A DNA stretch of 64,000 nucleotides from Minisyncoccia bacterium (GCA_038212075.1 JBBQUV010000001.1:99200-163199); one strand, 5' to 3'; counted from the stretch's first letter, positions 45,093 to 53,880 are shown. A program made the numbers and translations. The notes: a model not told the origin generated them from the letters alone.

Positions 45093-45761
45093 TTAGAGCC
45101 AATCAATAGGTGCTTGCCCGTGCTGAATAAGGTACTCATTTGCTTTGATGAAATGATTGTTTCCAAAAAATCCACTATGTGCAGAAAATGGTGATGGGTG
45201 TGGTGATTCAAGTACGAGATGTTTGACCCGATCAATGTGTGCGCCTTTTTGTTTTGCATAGTTTCCCCAGAGCATAAACACAAGATGCTCACCTTTATCG
45301 GAAAGGGCTTTGATGGCGGCATCAGTGAACAATTCCCATCCATGGCCTTGGTGGCTGCCGGCCGTGTGGGCGCGCACCGTAAGTGTGGCGTTTAAAAGCA
45401 GTACTCCCTGCTGTGCCCAGCGCGAAAGATCACCACTCGTATGTACTGGCGGTTTTTTATATTCCGCTTCGATCTCTTTAAAAATATTTTGAAGCGACGG
45501 TGGGATTTTTTGCTCGGCGTCTACCGCAAACGACAGTCCGTTTGCTTGCCCTTGACCGTGATACGGATCTTGGCCAAGTATCACGACCTTCACATCATCA
45601 AAAGGGGTAAGTGCAAACGATCGAAATATCGCCTTTGGTGACGGGTACACGGTAGCTTCCCCATATTCCTTCTTCACGAAATCAGTGAGTTCCTTGAAGT
45701 ACGTCTTCCCGAACTCCTCTTCAAGAGCTTTCTTCCATGACGCTTCCATTTTTACCTCCAT
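45093..45761 (-). CDS. ung: uracil-DNA glycosylase (family 1)
   Basis: VVILGQDPYHGQGQANGLSFAV water-activating/uracil pocket motif and a C-terminal HPSPLSA-like motif (HPSPFSA). Confidence 0.9.
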   Translation of the reverse strand: MEVKMEASWKKALEEEFGKTYFKELTDFVKKEYGEATVYPSPKAIFRSFALTPFDDVKVVILGQDPYHGQGQANGLSFAVDAEQKIPPSLQNIFKEIEAEYKKPPVHTSGDLSRWAQQGVLLLNATLTVRAHTAGSHQGHGWELFTDAAIKALSDKGEHLVFMLWGNYAKQKGAHIDRVKHLVLESPHPSPFSAHSGFFGNNHFIKANEYLIQHGQAPIDWL

Positions 45762-45821: not shown

Positions 45822-46274
45822 TTAGATTGGTCCGCGACCAAAGACTTTTAAGAGACAGGCATTCACATAGCCAAGGTTCGTTTCGTAGTCTTGTTGGATG
45901 AGAATCTGGCTACCTTCATCGAAGCTGTCCATGGGAACAAAACCTTTTTCGTTCCCTGTGCTTATACCGAGCACTGTTCCTTTTCCGCGGTAATCAAGAT
46001 ACGCACGTCCAGCTGATCGATTGTACAAACGAACACCGATGTCTTCGTCGATGGTGACCTCGATCACCAACGGGATATCTTTCCCTGAATGTTGTATGTC
46101 TGGAATGGTTCCGACGCATTTGATCGGTACGCAAGTATCTGCGTCTCCGTCGCAGTCAAAACTTTTGATCAACTGAATCAAAACCTTTCCGTACGGCGGA
46201 CTGATATGCCCCGGTTCCACCGAGGCGGGAAGAACCACTACAGAAAAAGCTGAAACAAGTAACATCATGCGCAT
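45822..46274 (-). CDS. hypothetical secreted protein (150 aa)
   Basis: Signal peptide; no recognisable domain. Confidence 0.45.
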   Translation of the reverse strand: MRMMLLVSAFSVVVLPASVEPGHISPPYGKVLIQLIKSFDCDGDADTCVPIKCVGTIPDIQHSGKDIPLVIEVTIDEDIGVRLYNRSAGRAYLDYRGKGTVLGISTGNEKGFVPMDSFDEGSQILIQQDYETNLGYVNACLLKVFGRGPI

Positions 46275-46354: not shown

Positions 46355-46645
46355 TTACTTTTGAATTCGTAAACCCTTTATTGAAACACCCTCGCTCCTC
46401 AGTATGCTCACTTTCATAGAAGGGCCGCCACGATTGTATTCACCAATAGTGCCGTCGGCTCGCACAACACGATGGCAGGGCACGGTAGGATCGTAATTGT
46501 CGCGCATAATAGTGCCCACGGCACGTGCCGCACCTGCGTGTCCGGTAGCAGTGGCCACTTCTCCGTACGTACGCGTTTGTCCTTTCGGAATATGTCGAAC
46601 GGCAGAGCGTACTAAATCTGCAAACACGGTTTTCTGTATAGACAT
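46355..46645 (-). CDS. MGMT-family protein, C-terminal alkyltransferase/DNA-binding domain only
   Basis: PCHRVV active-site motif (VPCHRVVRADGTIGEY) within a roughly 97-aa product. Start chosen at the internal ATG because the longer ORF overlaps the upstream gene. Confidence 0.7.
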   Translation of the reverse strand: MSIQKTVFADLVRSAVRHIPKGQTRTYGEVATATGHAGAARAVGTIMRDNYDPTVPCHRVVRADGTIGEYNRGGPSMKVSILRSEGVSIKGLRIQK

Positions 46646-46646
46646 A

Positions 46647-47429
46647 TTAGGCTTTCTTTTTCTTTGCATGGATTTCTTGAAGCTTTTCACCAGCATATTT
46701 GCGGTACGGACAAAACTTGCACGCACTTCCTGTTTTTGGAATGTCTTCCGACATCAGACACTCTTTCAGTGAATCAAGGACGGCAGGAATCCACGAGTCG
46801 TCACCTTCATATGGCAGAATGGTTACTTCAAATTCAAGCTTGCCGTCAAATGCCTTACGGTCGTTTTGGCCGTTTGCGTATACAAAATAGGCAGTGGGCG
46901 ATACGGTAAACCCATTTTGACGAAGTAACCATTGATATATTTCCGCTTGACGTTTGTAGCCATCTTTCCACTCGTCATCCATCGTCACCGTTTCTTTGCC
47001 TGCCGTTGCCTTGTAATCTGCTACATGCAATTCCCCTTTACTGTTTTTCCAGATATCGTCCACGCCACCACGCACAATTAAGTTTGCAGGAGTATAGAGT
47101 GCCTTTACGCCACGCTTCAGCGCGTCGCGCCATTCGTCCATTCTTGAATCATCAAAAGGTACCGCATCAATGCCGTACTGTTTCATCAAAGGATGCGGCT
47201 TCCCATTTGCACGATATATATCAAATTCTTTCTTAAACAGTTCGTCCACGGCATTATTGAGCGTGAACGGAAAGCTATCAGGTCGCCCGATGCCGTACCG
47301 CGCTTCCATCCAGTAACACCGCGCGCATTCCGTAAAGAATTCTATCTTGCTACGACTTATGGTGTACGGTTCTTTTTGTTTCGGGTTAAATCGTCCCCTT
47401 TCCCACTTAAGTTTATATTCAAACGCCAT
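46647..47429 (-). CDS. PD-(D/E)XK nuclease family protein, Cas4/RecB-like (4 Cys, probable Fe-S)
   Basis: GGVDDIW...ELHVADYKATAG matches the Cas4/RecB nuclease motifs II-III. Cys pairs sit at the N-terminus (ECARC) and C-terminus (CKFC). Start at the internal ATG (MAFEYK). Confidence 0.65.
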   Translation of the reverse strand: MAFEYKLKWERGRFNPKQKEPYTISRSKIEFFTECARCYWMEARYGIGRPDSFPFTLNNAVDELFKKEFDIYRANGKPHPLMKQYGIDAVPFDDSRMDEWRDALKRGVKALYTPANLIVRGGVDDIWKNSKGELHVADYKATAGKETVTMDDEWKDGYKRQAEIYQWLLRQNGFTVSPTAYFVYANGQNDRKAFDGKLEFEVTILPYEGDDSWIPAVLDSLKECLMSEDIPKTGSACKFCPYRKYAGEKLQEIHAKKKKA

Positions 47430-47430
47430 A

Positions 47431-47958
47431 TTACGGATTGGTGTGGAAGAGTGCGATGACACGCTGTCCTGAATCGTAATCAACATACACACTGTCGGCA
47501 TGAAGATCAAATACCCCGTCACCATCATCGCGATAGAGGACAACGGCGTAGGTTTGTCCGGGAAGCGTGTTGCGAAGTAGATGTACCGCGACATTTGATT
47601 CTGAGCCCGCGGTGCCGGCAACACCAAGGATATTACCCAAATCGTTTCCGTGCAGTTCTACTATCGCAACCCATACACCGGGAGCAGGAACAGAAACCGT
47701 ATCAACCACAGCGGCATTGCCCGCGTCTTGATCGTGCACCGTAAGAAGCCCTGAGGAGACGTGTTCTTCAAACCCAGAATTGGTTGTTGAAGAGGTATTA
47801 GGAGTGGCGTTGACCGTATTCTGTGCCGCGCGTAAATCAGTTTCTACAAACCACGCGCTCGCGCACAGCACACCAAGAAGAAAACTGATGCCAGCAATAA
47901 CCACCCCATGACTTTGGCGTGGGGCAGGTGAAAGCATTAGTTCGGTGCTAGGCGTCAT
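47431..47958 (-). CDS. hypothetical membrane-anchored protein
   Basis: N-terminal TM helix, no recognisable domain. Start at internal ATG (MTPSTEL). Confidence 0.45.
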   Translation of the reverse strand: MTPSTELMLSPAPRQSHGVVIAGISFLLGVLCASAWFVETDLRAAQNTVNATPNTSSTTNSGFEEHVSSGLLTVHDQDAGNAAVVDTVSVPAPGVWVAIVELHGNDLGNILGVAGTAGSESNVAVHLLRNTLPGQTYAVVLYRDDGDGVFDLHADSVYVDYDSGQRVIALFHTNP

Positions 47959-48820
47959 ATACGGTTGTTTCGGACAAACTGTTAATTTCCGAGAGTATAG
48001 CGCCAATTCGTTCCGGTGTAACGCCAAACTTTCGCAAGACAGTTCGGTGCTCAAGAAGCATTGCTGAAGTTACAATTCCCTGGTCTACCAGAAGGCGTTT
48101 TTCAGACCGTTTTAGATTTGTAAGCGTCGTGACGGGATAAATACCAGCGCTGATAATACGATCGTATAAATTGCCCTCATCGGGGAAACTCCAGCCAAGA
48201 AGTTCTAGGCCGGCGCACATAGAATATTCAATGGCCTGACTCGTGAATTTAGTATTTGTAATAAGCATTCCGCGTCCAATAGGACAATTGCGTACGCGCG
48301 GATCGCAATGCCAAATATCTTCAAACCGCGCTTTCACATAGAGTGCTGTTTTTACATCCGTTTTATAAAACGCATCGTTGTGGTATTTCAGTTCTGCGGC
48401 AAGCGTCTCTTTTCCGCGTGTCGCGTACACATCTACTTCGTGGGTAACACACTTTCCTTGTATAATCTTGCGCCACTCCACATTCCACCCTTCGGCTTTA
48501 AACAGTTGCGCAACAAAATCTTCAAACGGATGTCCTGAAGGACCGAACTCAAGAAGCGCACGACGGAGAGCATAGCGTGCGGCAACCGAACGTGCTTCGC
48601 GGCGCAACATGGCAAATGCTTTGCGATAAATTTCTTGAGATCGCACCTCGCTCCCCATGGCGGCCGTAATGGTGTGCGTAATGCGTTCTGCGGTATGTAT
48701 GCCTGCGCCAGCATGACGCAGTGACGCAATCAATTTTTCTCCATCAAATCGTTCAATCGAACCGTCGGTTTTAACGATGGATGCGGCACTTTTTGAACGT
48801 ACAGTGAATCCTTGTGGCAT
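47948..48820 (-). CDS. ATP-cone domain fused to PD-(D/E)XK (Mrr-like) restriction endonuclease domain
   Basis: N-terminal ATP-cone (IVKTDGSIERFDGEKLIASLRHAG), then a nuclease core with D...ExK (HEVDVYA...AAELKYH). Confidence 0.65.
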   Translation of the reverse strand: MPQGFTVRSKSAASIVKTDGSIERFDGEKLIASLRHAGAGIHTAERITHTITAAMGSEVRSQEIYRKAFAMLRREARSVAARYALRRALLEFGPSGHPFEDFVAQLFKAEGWNVEWRKIIQGKCVTHEVDVYATRGKETLAAELKYHNDAFYKTDVKTALYVKARFEDIWHCDPRVRNCPIGRGMLITNTKFTSQAIEYSMCAGLELLGWSFPDEGNLYDRIISAGIYPVTTLTNLKRSEKRLLVDQGIVTSAMLLEHRTVLRKFGVTPERIGAILSEINSLSETTVYDA

Positions 48821-48822
48821 AG

Positions 48823-49227
48823 CTAAGGAGTCGTCGTTGCGAATGCGCCATTCGTGTAAAGCATGACAGGAGCGTTTGCGGGCGCAGACACTGAAAGAGT
48901 GAAGGTGTGCGGTGTAAGAAGCTGTAAACACATTCCTTCATCCACCGGCGCCGCAAGGTCTACACGAATCGTGGGCGTACTTGTACTGTCAACAAGTGAG
49001 CTGGTAGCTGAAAGTGCCGTACAGGCCGTCGGCACACTCGCCGTCACCCGCACAGTATGAACACCTTTCGAGTATTTATTGGTGAGCTGTATCTCCGTAA
49101 TGGCCGCGTTACCCGAATCAAGCATTGGTGTTTCTGGAGCGGTGCTCTCCGTAATATGAAACACGAAGACTCCAAACGCAATGATTACGACCACTAAAAA
49201 GATTCCTGTCGCCATCCACTTCTTCAT
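48823..49227 (-). CDS. hypothetical secreted protein (134 aa)
   Basis: Signal-anchor followed by a Ser/Thr/Ala-rich domain. Confidence 0.45.
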   Translation of the reverse strand: MKKWMATGIFLVVVIIAFGVFVFHITESTAPETPMLDSGNAAITEIQLTNKYSKGVHTVRVTASVPTACTALSATSSLVDSTSTPTIRVDLAAPVDEGMCLQLLTPHTFTLSVSAPANAPVMLYTNGAFATTTP

Positions 49228-49241
49228 ACGCCTATTCTACC

Positions 49242-50276
49242 TCACTCCTCTATCACTGCACCACCAACCAACGTTTCGCCTCGATAAAACACCACGGATT
49301 GCCCAGGGGCACACTGTTCGGAAAGTGGTTTTATAGGCGTGAATGTATGGGAGGACGTGTCCAGTATTCCCTCTACTAATGGACCATGGTACCGAGTCTG
49401 AGCAGATACAGCACCTTCTGTAGACGTAAACCAATGTAGGTTTGAAAAACGGATAGAGTTATGTATCTTTCCTGACCGGAATGGAGTGTTTGCGACCATC
49501 AGTGTATTTTTTTGAATATCTTTTTTCATTACATACCACGGGCCGGGCGGTGCGCCTTGTATATTGGCTCGCTCGCCAAGGGTGTAGCTTATGGCACCTT
49601 CGTGCGTGCCCATTTCTGATCCTGTTTCGTCATAGGCATTACCACGAGTGAGTCCAATTTCTGAGCGCAGGAAGTCTTCTATGGAAACAGCGCCAAGAAA
49701 ACAGATGCCTTGGCTGTCTCGCTTCTGTGCAACCGGTAGTGCGTATCGAGCCGCTAGCGCACGTACATCGGTTTTATGGAGATTTCCAAGAGGAAAAAGA
49801 AGCGACGGAAGCGTCTCTTTTGATATCGCCCATAAAAAATAGCTCTGATCTTTTGCCGTATCGATACCTCGCAATAATGCACCGTCAACTACTCGCGCGT
49901 AATGCCCCGTCGCTACAAAATCTGCACCGTGTTTTTTAGCAAACGTATAAAATGCACCAAACTTAACATCACGATTGCAAAAAATATCAGGGTTCGGCGT
50001 TCTTCCCACAGCATATTCGCGCACCAAGTAATCAATGACACTTTTTTTGTATTCAACCGATGCATCAAGTGTGACAAAAGGAATATGTAGTTTCGCCGCA
50101 ACGCGCATAGCGTCACGACGATCCTCAGCCCACGTACAGGGCAACTCGGGCGGATACCACCCCTTTATGAAAACACCGGTTACCTCCGCTCCCTCAGCCT
50201 GAAGCAGTGCGGCGGTGACCGCAGAATCTACGCCGCCAGAAAGCCCAACAAACACTTTTTTAACTTTCACGTTCAT
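49242..50276 (-). CDS. mnmA: tRNA-specific 2-thiouridylase
   Basis: PP-loop SGGVDS at the N-terminus, catalytic Cys region, 344 aa. Confidence 0.9.
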   Translation of the reverse strand: MNVKVKKVFVGLSGGVDSAVTAALLQAEGAEVTGVFIKGWYPPELPCTWAEDRRDAMRVAAKLHIPFVTLDASVEYKKSVIDYLVREYAVGRTPNPDIFCNRDVKFGAFYTFAKKHGADFVATGHYARVVDGALLRGIDTAKDQSYFLWAISKETLPSLLFPLGNLHKTDVRALAARYALPVAQKRDSQGICFLGAVSIEDFLRSEIGLTRGNAYDETGSEMGTHEGAISYTLGERANIQGAPPGPWYVMKKDIQKNTLMVANTPFRSGKIHNSIRFSNLHWFTSTEGAVSAQTRYHGPLVEGILDTSSHTFTPIKPLSEQCAPGQSVVFYRGETLVGGAVIEE

Positions 50277-50316: not shown

Positions 50317-51324
50317 CTAGTCTAGGTACTTCGCACGGTTTATTTTGTGCTCAGCAAAGGTTTTTGCGTAATGCATTAGTCCATCTTGACCCGTTAGGTA
50401 ATAGAGCGCGTCGGTTTTTATAGGTGTAACCGCGGCATAGATAGAGTTCGCGCTTGGGTTTCCAATGGGACCGGGCGGAAGCCCTTTGTGCGTGTAGGTG
50501 TTATAGCTTGAATCTGTTTTTAGTTCACTAAATCTTGGACTGTACGTATCCCGGTCGTTAATGTATCCGAACACCGCATCTACTTGAAGCGGCATGCCGA
50601 GGCTAATGCGGTTCCATAAAATACCCGCAACCATTTGCTTCTCACTTACCGAGCGTGCTTCTTTTTCAAGAAGCGAGGCCATAATTAAGTCGTCTTGGAG
50701 CGGTTTATTAAACGCCGTGACTACGGAAGCAAGGTCTGCTTCATGCGTTTTAAAATTGTCATACATTTTTGCCACTACTTCGTCCGAAGTAGTATCAGGA
50801 TAAAAGAAATACGTATCGGGGTAGAGATATCCTTCCAGAGGAACGGCTTGTGCAAGGAAGGCATTGGTATTGAAATCAGGAAATGCCGCAGTCAGCTGAC
50901 GCGCCATATCACGCACGGTCGCACCTTCTCTGAAAGTAATACGCGTTGCGGTAATGCCAAATACACCACCTTCTACCCGCGATTCTATTCCAAATAACCC
51001 CGCAGGGCTTGCAAACACGTATCTACCTGCTTTTGCACTGCCACCCCGAAGTCGTCCGAGTACGGTAAACAGAAAAGGTGAGCGAATCACATGTTGCTCG
51101 GCAAGGCGTGCTCCAATACTAGTGAAACTTGAACCTTCGGTGACGTTTATAATTTTACCAACAGGAAAGTCTGACGGTGGCGCAAGAAAAATATACCAAC
51201 CAGAAAGCACGAGTACAGCAACCGCAAGTATCGCTGAAAGATATTCAGTTTTTAACCGCGACACGTTCATTTCTATAACGGCAAATGTTGTTTTTGCCAT
51301 TTGTATAAAGAGTGAGTCGTTCAT
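50317..51324 (-). CDS. mltG: endolytic murein transglycosylase MltG (YceG family)
   Basis: N-terminal TM helix, then a YceG-like domain (YPDTYFFYPDTT..., LQVDAVFGY). Confidence 0.8.
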   Translation of the reverse strand: MNDSLFIQMAKTTFAVIEMNVSRLKTEYLSAILAVAVLVLSGWYIFLAPPSDFPVGKIINVTEGSSFTSIGARLAEQHVIRSPFLFTVLGRLRGGSAKAGRYVFASPAGLFGIESRVEGGVFGITATRITFREGATVRDMARQLTAAFPDFNTNAFLAQAVPLEGYLYPDTYFFYPDTTSDEVVAKMYDNFKTHEADLASVVTAFNKPLQDDLIMASLLEKEARSVSEKQMVAGILWNRISLGMPLQVDAVFGYINDRDTYSPRFSELKTDSSYNTYTHKGLPPGPIGNPSANSIYAAVTPIKTDALYYLTGQDGLMHYAKTFAEHKINRAKYLD

Positions 51325-52754
51325 TATGTGGGAAGGTTGGACGGTGCTTCTGTCGTTGCTGACTGAATACGGGGCAAATTTGGTGCCGCAACCGTTGATG
51401 AAGGAATGTGAAAGAGTGAGGCAATTTCTTCGTTACTCATCTGCATATACGGTCCAATATACGGGAAATGAAAATATGAACGCCGACGCGCAAATTCAAG
51501 CGCTTCCTCCATTAAGTGCTGACGACGGGTACCCTTCGGGTCTTCCCATGGAAAGTCGTTCAATTCTTCAGAGAAAAGCGTGGCAGGTTTTAGATAATTC
51601 AACTGTTCTGAAGTATAGGGTCGGAATATTTGCGTAACAAATGCGCCAATATAATCGCGGTAGTGCCCTTCTTTTGCAAAGTAAATGGAACGAATGCCAA
51701 CATCCCACCCAGGCTTTGCGACATTGCGCTCAATGGCGGCCATTGTTTCGCTGTCACCCTTGCTTGGGTTTGGAAAGCCGTCAGATTCTCGTTTTTCGTG
51801 AGTAACGGGGTCGGTAAAGATTGTTTTTTTAACGGTACTTTCTTTAATTTTTTTAATTTCTTCTTTTGCTTCATCACGCCACGTGTATCGCTTGCCGTCC
51901 TTGTACACACTTTCATACCCGTGTTTTTCACCTTTCGTATAGCGAATCATAATGTGAATCCACAATTGTTCGTTTGGACCCAGTGACCCCAAAAACTCAA
52001 TCACTTGCGCCATGGGATCAGTTACCTCTTCCGGTTCCGGTGCTGGTTGTTTATCCATCAAATAATCCACGTACGTTTTAATAGGGTACGGACTTGGTTT
52101 ATCTTTTTTATATTCGCAGGCAAACATTTGGTACGGTGGCTGTGTCGGGTCAACAAGACGCGTATAGTCCACCGCCTCCACTACTTCAATGCCAGGATAT
52201 TGTGCATAGAAATACGTTTCAACAATATGCCGCATTGGTGCACGCACCCATACATATAAATGCACGCGTCCACCAAGCGACACCATTTCAAGCGAATACC
52301 ATACGCGTGTGCGGCCAAGCCACCAGCGCTTGTACCACGTCCCTTGTCCCGGGGCGATGTGAATGTTGGACAGAATTACTTCCATGGAAAGCGGGGATTT
52401 CAATGTTTCTCGAGGGATACGCAATTCAAGAAGTACGTTGCGTTGCGCCACGTTAAAACCATACTGTCGCGAATCTACCCACCGCACCCATGCATTTTTA
52501 CCAAGAAGAAAAGTAAGCCATACCGGTGAAAGGAGCATCACCATTTGAAAGTTGTACAGCGCTTGTTGCGGGTACAAAACAACAAAAATGACGTTCACTA
52601 CCGCAAACGGTATGGAAATCGCATTAAACGGGATTTTAAGTCCATTTTCTTCGTGGAGTTTGTGCCGGATGCCGTCAACAAATGAAAACAACGGCAAACT
52701 AAGTCCACCTCCTTTTCCGCCAGTACCTGACATTGCAAAAAGTATACCACCCAC
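51324..52754 (-). CDS. hypothetical membrane protein (476 aa), translationally coupled to mltG
   Basis: Two N-terminal TM helices then an about 380-aa soluble domain. The stop overlaps the mltG start (ATGA). No recognisable domain. Confidence 0.55.
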   Translation of the reverse strand: MGGILFAMSGTGGKGGGLSLPLFSFVDGIRHKLHEENGLKIPFNAISIPFAVVNVIFVVLYPQQALYNFQMVMLLSPVWLTFLLGKNAWVRWVDSRQYGFNVAQRNVLLELRIPRETLKSPLSMEVILSNIHIAPGQGTWYKRWWLGRTRVWYSLEMVSLGGRVHLYVWVRAPMRHIVETYFYAQYPGIEVVEAVDYTRLVDPTQPPYQMFACEYKKDKPSPYPIKTYVDYLMDKQPAPEPEEVTDPMAQVIEFLGSLGPNEQLWIHIMIRYTKGEKHGYESVYKDGKRYTWRDEAKEEIKKIKESTVKKTIFTDPVTHEKRESDGFPNPSKGDSETMAAIERNVAKPGWDVGIRSIYFAKEGHYRDYIGAFVTQIFRPYTSEQLNYLKPATLFSEELNDFPWEDPKGTRRQHLMEEALEFARRRSYFHFPYIGPYMQMSNEEIASLFHIPSSTVAAPNLPRIQSATTEAPSNLPT

Positions 52755-52809: not shown

Positions 52810-53880
52810 TTAGACCGCGGCGTACTTGCCTTCTTTGGTGCGTTTAAAGTAACGCGTGTCGTTAAGATTCACCAAGATAGTGTTGTCTTTTACGTAGCGA
52901 ACCTTCTTTACTTCTTCCATGACGCGTTCGCGCGTAAGAGCACCTTGTGCTTTTAGAATGTCGCGAATAACATCACGCACCACTCCTGGTTGGTAGCCCC
53001 ATTCTGCAAGCGCATAGAGGCCACGACCAACAAGTACGAAACGAGGATCTTTGATCAATTCGTTGTGTGTCGTTGCAACATGTGCCTTCTTTGCAAACAT
53101 AGTGCTGATGGTTTTTGCAACATCAGAGAAGTGCATTGGCTTACCGTGTTGCTTGATAACGAGAAACGCGTAGTCGCGGATTCCTTTTGTTCGAATGGTT
53201 GGACTTGCGGCACGACCCCATTCTGAAAGAGGATTCGATGCGATGGTCTTTGAAAGGGAGAGCCAACGCTTCATTATTTCTTCGTTTTTGTAGGCATCGT
53301 TTACACCCTTAAGTTCATCAAGGAAACGGTCAAGAAGTTCGCCTTCCGGAAGCACGTCGCTGTCTTCAAGTGACGCATAGAGTGAAGAGAGTGCTTCATG
53401 CACTTTTTCTGCAGTCGTTGCATCAACATGCCATCGAGCATAGAAATCATCGGTTTCGCGTTCGCGGAAAAAGGCACTTCCTACAACGAGGAAGAAGCGG
53501 TAACGATTGCGAGTTTTTTCGTCTTTGGTAAGCCCAGCAAGAAGTTCATCTTCAGGAACGATCCCACCAAGAGACTCAATGTGGGAACGGAGTGTTTCAA
53601 AAACGGGCTCTGCGTCTTTAAATGATTTACTTGCACGAACAGCGTCAAGACCAGCGCCTTCAATCTGACGAACGCGCTCGCGAGTAATACCCCAACCCTC
53701 GCCGATTTCCTCAAGCGTCTGACGGTCTGCCGATGTACCAAGGCCAAAACGGAAGGTAAGAACCTCGCGGGCACGGTCAGGAACTTCAGAAAGAAGTTTT
53801 TTAGTAAGGGCGGTTGTGTCCATAGAAAACGCCGCGGGAGTAGTTTTTTTCTTTGAAGGGGTGGTTCCGGTTTTTGCCAT
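52810..53880 (-). CDS. sigma-70 region 4-like HTH fused to C-terminal HARE-HTH domain protein
   Basis: N-terminal VLTFRFGLG...TLEEIGEGWGITRERVRQIE (sigma region 4.2) and a C-terminal segment (...DPRFVLVGRGLYALAEWGY) matching the HARE-HTH signature of RNAP delta-like proteins. Confidence 0.6.
   Translation of the reverse strand: MAKTGTTPSKKKTTPAAFSMDTTALTKKLLSEVPDRAREVLTFRFGLGTSADRQTLEEIGEGWGITRERVRQIEGAGLDAVRASKSFKDAEPVFETLRSHIESLGGIVPEDELLAGLTKDEKTRNRYRFFLVVGSAFFRERETDDFYARWHVDATTAEKVHEALSSLYASLEDSDVLPEGELLDRFLDELKGVNDAYKNEEIMKRWLSLSKTIASNPLSEWGRAASPTIRTKGIRDYAFLVIKQHGKPMHFSDVAKTISTMFAKKAHVATTHNELIKDPRFVLVGRGLYALAEWGYQPGVVRDVIRDILKAQGALTRERVMEEVKKVRYVKDNTILVNLNDTRYFKRTKEGKYAAV

Follow-up and report, generated by a model that had tools for sequence, protein, structure and literature searches.

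Two nuclease genes within a conserved gene order between mnmA and ung of a Paceibacterota bacterium

Between mnmA, encoding a tRNA 2-thiouridylase, and ung, encoding a family-1 uracil-DNA glycosylase, a Minisyncoccia bacterium carries a run of six genes that we label A to F. They lie in a contiguous stretch of 64,000 nt (GCA_038212075.1 JBBQUV010000001.1:99200-163199), all of which was analysed and which we call the window. The host is a Paceibacterota bacterium of the candidate phyla radiation (CPR), and the closest related loci belong to Paceibacterota and Parcubacteria metagenome-assembled genomes (MAGs). All genes of the run are on the minus strand and are read in the order mnmA, A, B, C, D, E, F, ung; they include a nuclease with an N-terminal ATP-cone (B), a stand-alone nuclease of the RecB/Cas4 family (D) and a single-domain alkyltransferase homologue (E), interspersed with small membrane or secreted proteins (Table 1). 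The evidence assembled here favours, with a probability of about 0.65, a lineage-specific, vertically inherited stretch of core chromosome that holds independent housekeeping enzymes of repair and nucleic-acid processing along with variable envelope proteins, and not a dedicated module.

The original prediction, made from the DNA sequence alone, had described five tightly packed minus-strand genes next to ung and likened them to a DNA-damage or anti-phage module. Its inventory stood up well: open reading frame (ORF) calls for A to E span exactly 46355-49227, and the five products comprise, as it had proposed, a C-terminal-only MGMT (E), a four-cysteine PD-(D/E)XK nuclease of Cas4/RecB type (D), a membrane-anchored unknown with a transmembrane segment (C), an ATP-cone–PD-(D/E)XK fusion (B) and a small anchored or secreted protein with an N-terminal hydrophobic segment (A). 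The adjacency to ung did not hold, as F intervenes between E and ung. The junctions measure 14 nt (mnmA–A), 2 nt (A–B), 1 nt (C–D and D–E), 80 nt (E–F) and 60 nt (F–ung), and B and C overlap by 11 nt. This tightness is real but not unusual for the genome: across the window the median gap between same-strand genes is ~11.5 nt, junctions of ≤15 nt make up 55% of the total, and the minus strand carries 54 of 68 ORFs (ORF starts outside the region are longest-ORF approximations), so tight junctions are not distinguishing here. A promoter and terminator scan of 44.9–53 kb returned counts at shuffle background and is therefore uninformative on operon structure. The region is probably co-transcribed with mnmA.

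Table 1. Coordinates of the run and of neighbouring genes discussed in the text (window positions)
Gene	Product or feature	Coordinates	Strand	Basis
mnmA	tRNA 2-thiouridylase	49242..50276	-	PF03054, 232 bits
A	134 aa, N-terminal membrane anchor/signal anchor, no known domain	48823..49227	-	ORF, KD19
B	290 aa, ATP-cone + PD-(D/E)XK (Mrr/AF1548-type) nuclease + C-terminal helical AF1548-like_C	47948..48820	-	Pfam, fold
C	175 aa, membrane-anchored, DUF7282	47431..47958	-	PF23951, 40.2 bits
D	260 aa, stand-alone RecB/Cas4-family PD-(D/E)XK nuclease	46647..47429	-	PF12705, 40.5 bits (cut-off 22)
E	96 aa, single-domain O6-alkylguanine-DNA alkyltransferase homologue, PCHRV	46355..46645	-	PF01035, 88 bits
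F	150 aa, predicted secreted protein between E and ung	45822..46274	-	ORF
ung	family-1 uracil-DNA glycosylase	45093..45761	-	PF03167, 64 bits; GQDPYH, HPSPFS motifs in translation
X476	476-aa protein	51324-52754	-	no Pfam/NCBIfam match; marginal PHROG match, E 0.007
Y356	356-aa protein, Sigma70 region 4 near N-terminus + HARE-HTH	52810-53880	-	

Profile, fold and residue comparisons agree on the nuclease part of B, which scores 25.3 bits against Mrr_cat (PF04471, cut-off 21). Residues 102-279 align to AF1548 (PDB 1Y88, E=3.6e-22), and the AlphaFold model (mean predicted local distance difference test, pLDDT, 84) matches the same structure in Foldseek with a TMt of 0.80. D130, E143 and K145, the D...ExK triad that together with the Mrr_cat score and the AF1548 fold marks B as Mrr/AF1548-type, are invariant in CPR and non-CPR homologues and align with the catalytic residues predicted for AF1548 (PMC1821046). 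The N-terminal ~85 residues have the ATP-cone fold: Foldseek matches this part to the ATP-cones of NrdR (7p37, 9fvr, 9gex) and ribonucleotide reductase (RNR), on which it superposes with a root-mean-square deviation of ~2-3 Å over ~82 residues (1.9-2.9 Å over 79-93 residues). The score against PF03477 is 23.1 bits, slightly below the gathering cut-off of 25.8, and many close homologues carry precomputed PF03477 matches. In the ATP-cone K17, G20 and K29 are invariant across phyla; at the arginine position of the K-R-D-G motif the CPR branch has Ala or Thr, and the residue varies in other phyla. B would accordingly act as an AF1548-type PD-(D/E)XK nuclease whose ATP-cone most likely ties cleavage to the ATP/dATP pool.

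The B family comprises at least 1,717 clusters at 90% identity when queried with the window protein, plus at least 7,522 when queried with a Pontibacter homologue. A match at E≤1e-30 is attained by just 372 representatives (50% identity), nearly all 270-295 aa long and matched over their full length; so large and compact a family of fixed length has the profile of a slowly evolving housekeeping enzyme. Our literature search found no description of ATP-cone–nuclease fusions, and the family is very large, rigidly conserved and, as far as we could find, uncharacterised. Four cysteines of B (C124, C172, C179 and C202) are invariant in 36 Paceibacterota-type B proteins; other phyla and AF1548 share just C124 and C202 with them. 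The C172/C179 pair lies in a low-confidence loop (pLDDT ~62), and a lineage-specific metal site at these cysteines is possible.

D is a PDDEXK_1 member with a RecB-like fold. Its active site, DD...DYK...QxxxY, is intact and conforms to the RecB-type motif; in alignments of 14 and 39 sequences the residues D124/D125, D138-Y-K140, Q161 and Y165 are invariant, as are the four cysteines C35, C38, C237 and C240. The original prediction of a four-cysteine nuclease thus gains a specific arrangement, CxxC...CxxC (2+2), which is not the canonical C...CxxCx5C (1+3) of Cas4. Against TIGR00372 (cas4) D scores 28.7 bits, where the equivalog cut-off is 65, and PADLOC Cas4 models match it only below threshold (E 4e-7 to 9e-4). 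The predicted structure (pLDDT 89) retrieves the AdnA nuclease domain, MGME1, EXO5, RecE, Cas4 SSO0001 and ACE1 in Foldseek, with probability 1.00 for AdnA, MGME1, EXO5, RecE and Cas4; all of these have template modelling (TM) scores <0.5 except RecE (TMt 0.57), and D therefore has no close characterised relative. A search of BFVD gave distant RecB-family phage exonucleases only (TM ~0.45-0.53) and no closer analogue. D is Cas4-like in fold and chemistry and is not a member of the Cas4 family. We predict a metal-dependent RecB/Cas4-family nuclease with an active site braced by a four-cysteine metal site, most likely processing DNA ends or flaps in recombination or repair, as do solo-Cas4, Exo5 and the AddB nuclease domain.

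The D family amounts to at least 7,962 clusters, and an exact look-up of the window protein returned one 1.3-kb Logan contig only. A D-family nuclease of 334 aa, 39% identical to D, is encoded on the Flagellatimonas centrodinii plasmid NZ_CP092105.1 (L108:4986-5990), where its neighbours are mostly hypothetical proteins along with a nucleotide-kinase-domain protein and a helicase-related protein; since this is a gammaproteobacterial plasmid, the D family is not confined to Patescibacteria. One homologue (L006) was considered as a pseudogene and rejected as such, the in-frame stop being a tblastn over-extension upstream of the real start.

E scores 71.1 bits against TIGR00589 (cut-off 46.4) and in alignments covers no more than residues 91-175 of Ada-C and residues 71-151 of Mycobacterium tuberculosis Ogt; the Ogt equivalog models are not reached (52.6 versus 192). 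It retains the helix-turn-helix, the AARAVG arginine-finger region, the Asn hinge and the PCHR active site, the last kept in 22 of 22 sequences (the window protein and 21 orthologues). No N-terminal domain is present, the frame upstream being occupied by D after the 1-nt gap. Because the acceptor cysteine is retained, E is not an alkyltransferase-like (ATL) protein, and it would act as a single-domain suicide alkyltransferase, transferring the O6-alkyl group from guanine to the PCHR cysteine. The Ung protein would remove uracil.

The remaining members of the run are small and variable. Hydrophobic residues 5-23 of A reach a KD19 of 2.82, and the protein has no match in Pfam, NCBIfam, PHROG or PADLOC. 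C has a transmembrane segment at residues 20-38 (KD19 2.27) ahead of DUF7282. F begins with an N-terminal hydrophobic segment (KD19 1.89); the same four collections hold no family match for it, and no homologue occurs in the 22 syntenic loci described below. In those loci A is present in 7 (median identity 34%) and C in 15 (42%); both are fast-evolving. All three are probably envelope proteins that are functionally unrelated.

When 13 window proteins were searched by tblastn against the 12 loci of the B scan described below, the full series Y356-X476-yceG-mnmA-(A)-B-(C)-D-(E)-ung-pepO-alaS proved conserved to ~40% identity. In 22 related loci the section mnmA-(A)-B-(C)-D-(E)-ung is seen again, and only inside this 13-gene block with alaS, pepO and yceG. 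Across these 22 loci, which have both B and D, mnmA is found in 20, E in 17 and Ung in 14, so that B is as closely linked to mnmA as to D, and mnmA is its most constant neighbour; in L012 mnmA stands upstream of B even though D and E are absent. In the syntenic loci B, D and E have median identities of 56%, 55% and 58%, set beside 53% for MnmA, 46% for YceG, 67% for AlaRS and 70% for Ung; by this measure B, D and E are as conserved as the flanking housekeeping genes. Relatives carry insertions of MgtC between C and D, of FemAB and a Mur ligase between B and D, and of SIMPL or PCMT between D and E. A scan for B restricted to one genome per species gave 12 loci, two from Bacteroidota and ten from Patescibacteria MAGs, the latter labelled Paceibacterota, Parcubacteria, Kaiserbacteria and uncultured Saccharibacteria (six). 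Further along the block, X476 occupies the same position between yceG and the sigma-region-4/HARE-HTH gene in 15 of the 22 related loci, at 30-60% identity; Y356 itself is 51-83% identical, above most of its neighbours.

A wider metagenome scan with the D alignment yielded 80 loci, all ≥49% identical to D. In 13 of them B lies upstream of D, preceded by mnmA on every contig of sufficient length and in most cases accompanied by the other block genes. About 63 have neither B nor C nor Ung, and the full block occurs in none of these. E is kept in three of the ~63, adjacent to D in L039 and L091 and 3.5 kb upstream in L077, and a few short contigs keep only D-Ung or D-E. Where at least 3 kb of upstream sequence is available, B is present in 9-11 of 43 D loci. 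ORF clustering across the D loci returned no recurrent neighbour of D outside the block: in a Pfam scan of 81 immediate neighbours no family had more than three members (AhpC, YqeY, NUDIX), the remainder being scattered single repair or replication genes and ordinary metabolism. A rough neighbour-joining tree of D does not cleanly separate block-linked from unlinked loci, and it is not fine enough to tell ancestral retention from repeated assembly.

Searches for defence or mobility were negative. PADLOC-DB v2 identified no defence system in the region or among 70 window ORFs; B has a weak match to the ZorD nuclease domain (E=1e-3). The window has no CRISPR array, only one trivial tandem repeat, and its sole match to a Cas model is the sub-threshold one of D, whose description as a standalone Cas4-like gene is borne out. 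Neither B nor D matches any of 50,697 GenBank phage records. Island tests detected no mobility gene, tRNA flank or compositional shift at the region: GC content is 0.47-0.49 within a window range of 0.46-0.53, Rfam and tRNA scans revealed no RNA element in or near the region, and the nearest tRNAs are 14.8 and 27.6 kb away. The surroundings encode LeuRS, AlaRS, YchF, the ATP synthase beta subunit, MltG/YceG and the sigma-region-4/HARE-HTH protein. Over all window ORFs PADLOC also returned single matches to the models RTasRmuC (E=3e-20; the protein is probably an ordinary RmuC), MzaA, mad8 and QueC. Among IMG/VR sequences, D homologues of 51-52% identity stand beside a DNA methylase and a ResIII/TnsA-like protein (a Type III-like restriction-modification pair), a PIF1-like helicase and a terminase (L094:87-8909), and beside a Type I HsdR and an SMODS/AGS_C cyclase (L095:51-6210); a third neighbourhood has an SNF2-type helicase.

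Outside the CPR, B keeps different company. D, E and Ung are all missing from the vicinity of B in the 12 non-CPR loci examined (L010, L011, L102-L107 and L109-L112). A beta-CASP metallo-beta-lactamase (MBL) gene directly adjoins B in six of the 12, and in the three compared directly (L010, L102, L103) these genes are orthologous at ~56% identity. Four loci have an identical cassette of B, the beta-CASP gene, a thymidine-phosphorylase-family gene and a ribose-phosphate diphosphokinase gene (L102:1972-6597, L103:5995-10602, L109:5001-9666 and L111:5001-9671). Two of the carriers are plasmids, one from Pontibacter (Bacteroidota) and one from Criblamydia (Chlamydiota), and two are metagenome contigs; in the two contigs a ~229-aa gene follows, and after it PPK2 in at least L109. 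The cassette phosphorylase is of archaeal type, scoring 589 bits against TIGR02645 (above cut-off) and 480 against the AMP phosphorylase model TIGR03327 (cut-off 535); for the beta-CASP protein the nearest models are those of the aCPSF1 and Cas14 ribonucleases, and a GAPDH near the cassette is archaeal type II. Genes for P-type ATPases, PPK2 and universal stress proteins are repeatedly met near the non-CPR B loci. These neighbourhoods point to nucleic-acid and nucleotide catabolism or salvage under energy limitation and not to restriction. Our literature search found no description of the four-gene cassette. The beta-CASP, phosphorylase and diphosphokinase (Prs) partners have no tblastn homologue in the window or in the CPR block loci, so for the present genome the link is inferred from homology only. 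In one Patescibacteria metagenome locus (L062:3008-4357, minus strand) a beta-CASP MBL gene 34-36% identical to the non-CPR partner of B lies 2 kb upstream of a D homologue; B is not within the stretch fetched there.

We favour a reading in which ung, E, D and B would be independent housekeeping enzymes interleaved with fast-evolving small membrane and secreted proteins. Several observations weigh against it. The stop/start junctions of 1-11 nt suggest translational coupling; the order B-(C)-D-(E) persists to 37-43% identity on several branches of the rough tree, more than is usual for random gene order; and D and E adjoin in L039 and L091 without the rest of the block. D has eight IMG/VR matches, with nucleic-acid or defence-type genes beside it in the three neighbourhoods examined, and our literature search found no experimental study of either nuclease family. 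Part of this would suit a coordinated DNA-damage operon in which B, D, E and Ung share regulation and act together, B for instance incising at recognised alkylation or uracil lesions and D then resecting: junctions are tight or overlapping, B-D-E order is kept in 17-22 loci down to ~40% identity, and three to four DNA-acting enzymes fall within 4 kb. Yet the conserved order equally takes in mnmA (20 of 22), two membrane proteins and inserted unrelated genes, most D loci (~63 of 80) have neither B nor Ung and only three of those have E, B has other partners in other phyla, and tight junctions are the norm in this genome; we regard such an operon as unlikely. The DNA-repair flavour of the original prediction is reasonable, given a family-1 Ung, a cysteine-bearing alkyltransferase and a RecB/Cas4-family nuclease, but its module is not sustained: D is largely scattered with respect to its supposed partners, and what is co-inherited within one Paceibacterota lineage is the larger block with mnmA, yceG, alaS and pepO, not B, D and E as a separate unit.

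An anti-phage islet, in which B would be a nuclease of restriction type that senses nucleotides and D would serve as solo Cas4-like effector or accessory, seems very improbable. The nuclease core of B does resemble Mrr, MspJI and Can2-type effectors and has the weak ZorD match; D has its weak Cas4 matches, a plasmid-borne relative among mostly hypothetical proteins and IMG/VR homologues beside Type I/III restriction-modification, SMODS, PIF1 and terminase genes. The IMG/VR collection is, however, selected for such content, and defence-type genes are rare in the unbiased neighbour set of D. Moreover, the absence of any PADLOC system from the region and window, of phage matches for B and D, of a methyltransferase partner in the run and of island signatures, including any GC shift, sits poorly with the anti-phage half of the original proposal, as do vertical synteny and conservation like those of housekeeping genes and the slow evolution and fixed architecture of the B family. 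A tentative alternative, which we think doubtful, is nucleotide salvage: B, perhaps along with D, would break down the cell's own or imported RNA or DNA, and the ATP-cone would turn B on or off in response to the adenylate/dATP pool. De novo synthesis of nucleotides is generally missing from CPR bacteria. In favour of salvage are also the ribonuclease-like beta-CASP gene beside B in half of the non-CPR loci, the phosphorylase/ribose-phosphate diphosphokinase cassette that B heads in four of them, sometimes with PPK2, and the ATP-cone fold with its invariant K17, G20 and K29. On the other side, the cassette partners are missing from the window and the CPR syntenic loci, the association comes from 12 sampled loci, the RNA/DNA substrate and nucleotide binding are predictions, the K-R-D-G arginine is not kept, and nothing ties D to a salvage role.

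If the favoured reading of a vertically inherited housekeeping stretch is correct, the region matters little as a defence or repair islet, being ordinary conserved gene order in a streamlined CPR genome whose genes public MAG annotations already name generically. Its components matter more. D is part of a very large branch of solo Cas4-like nucleases that extends across the Patescibacteria and has an unusual CxxC...CxxC site predicted to bind metal, and E shows that this lineage typically has single-domain alkyltransferase homologues in which the cysteine is kept. The most promising lead is that B may be an ATP-sensing nuclease connected with nucleotide catabolism; it belongs to an ATP-cone–nuclease family of >9,000 clusters at 90% identity. 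Speculatively, the ATP-cone could gate the nuclease throughout the family in Patescibacteria, Bacteroidota and Chlamydiota, forming with the beta-CASP protein, the phosphorylase and the kinase resembling phosphoribosyl pyrophosphate synthase an adenylate-controlled catabolic or salvage pathway from nucleic acids to nucleotides, of which CPR bacteria would have retained B alone as an essential nuclease. Were the ATP-cone indeed to gate cleavage, ATP-cone allostery would extend beyond ribonucleotide reduction and offer a testable handle on the control of nucleic-acid breakdown in nucleotide-auxotrophic CPR bacteria.

Comparison with known systems places each component. Like the defence islands catalogued in PADLOC, the run is nuclease-rich and tightly packed; unlike them it has no complete or partial system and no mobility gene, and conserved housekeeping synteny surrounds it. 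E shares the DNA-binding domain and the PCHR cysteine with Ogt, Ada-C and MGMT, which have an extra N-terminal domain, and consists of the C-terminal domain only, as do the ATL proteins Atl1 and YbaZ, in which the active-site cysteine is replaced. For D the nearest parallel is solo-Cas4. Solo-cas4 genes are enriched among small genomes without CRISPR-Cas and show mainly vertical inheritance under ordinary selection (Hudaiberdiev et al. 2017, PMC5704561); the only one characterised biochemically, that of Methanosarcina mazei, is a [4Fe-4S] double-stranded DNA nuclease induced in stationary phase and not by virus challenge (PMC12501428). D likewise stands alone as a RecB-family nuclease, has four cysteines and comes from a small genome that lacks CRISPR-Cas; it is vertically inherited and ordinarily conserved, and the published pattern fits it well. 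It differs in its 2+2 cysteines and in falling below the Cas4 equivalog cut-off, and here it is not fused to UvrD, nor does a helicase adjoin it. B has two points of comparison. AF1548 (PDB 1Y88; Mrr_cat and AF1548-like_C), a structural-genomics protein of Archaeoglobus fulgidus with predicted catalytic residues and no assayed function, shares the nuclease core, the D...ExK residues and the cysteines C124/C202; it lacks the N-terminal ATP-cone and the C172/C179 loop of the Paceibacterota branch. The ATP-cones of NrdR and RNR share the fold and K17/G20/K29 with the N-terminus of B, which departs from the canonical motif at the K-R-D-G arginine and for which nucleotide binding is predicted only. 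The likely common logic is an ATP/dATP sensor controlling an attached output domain, which is a zinc-ribbon repressor or a reductase in those proteins and a nuclease in B.

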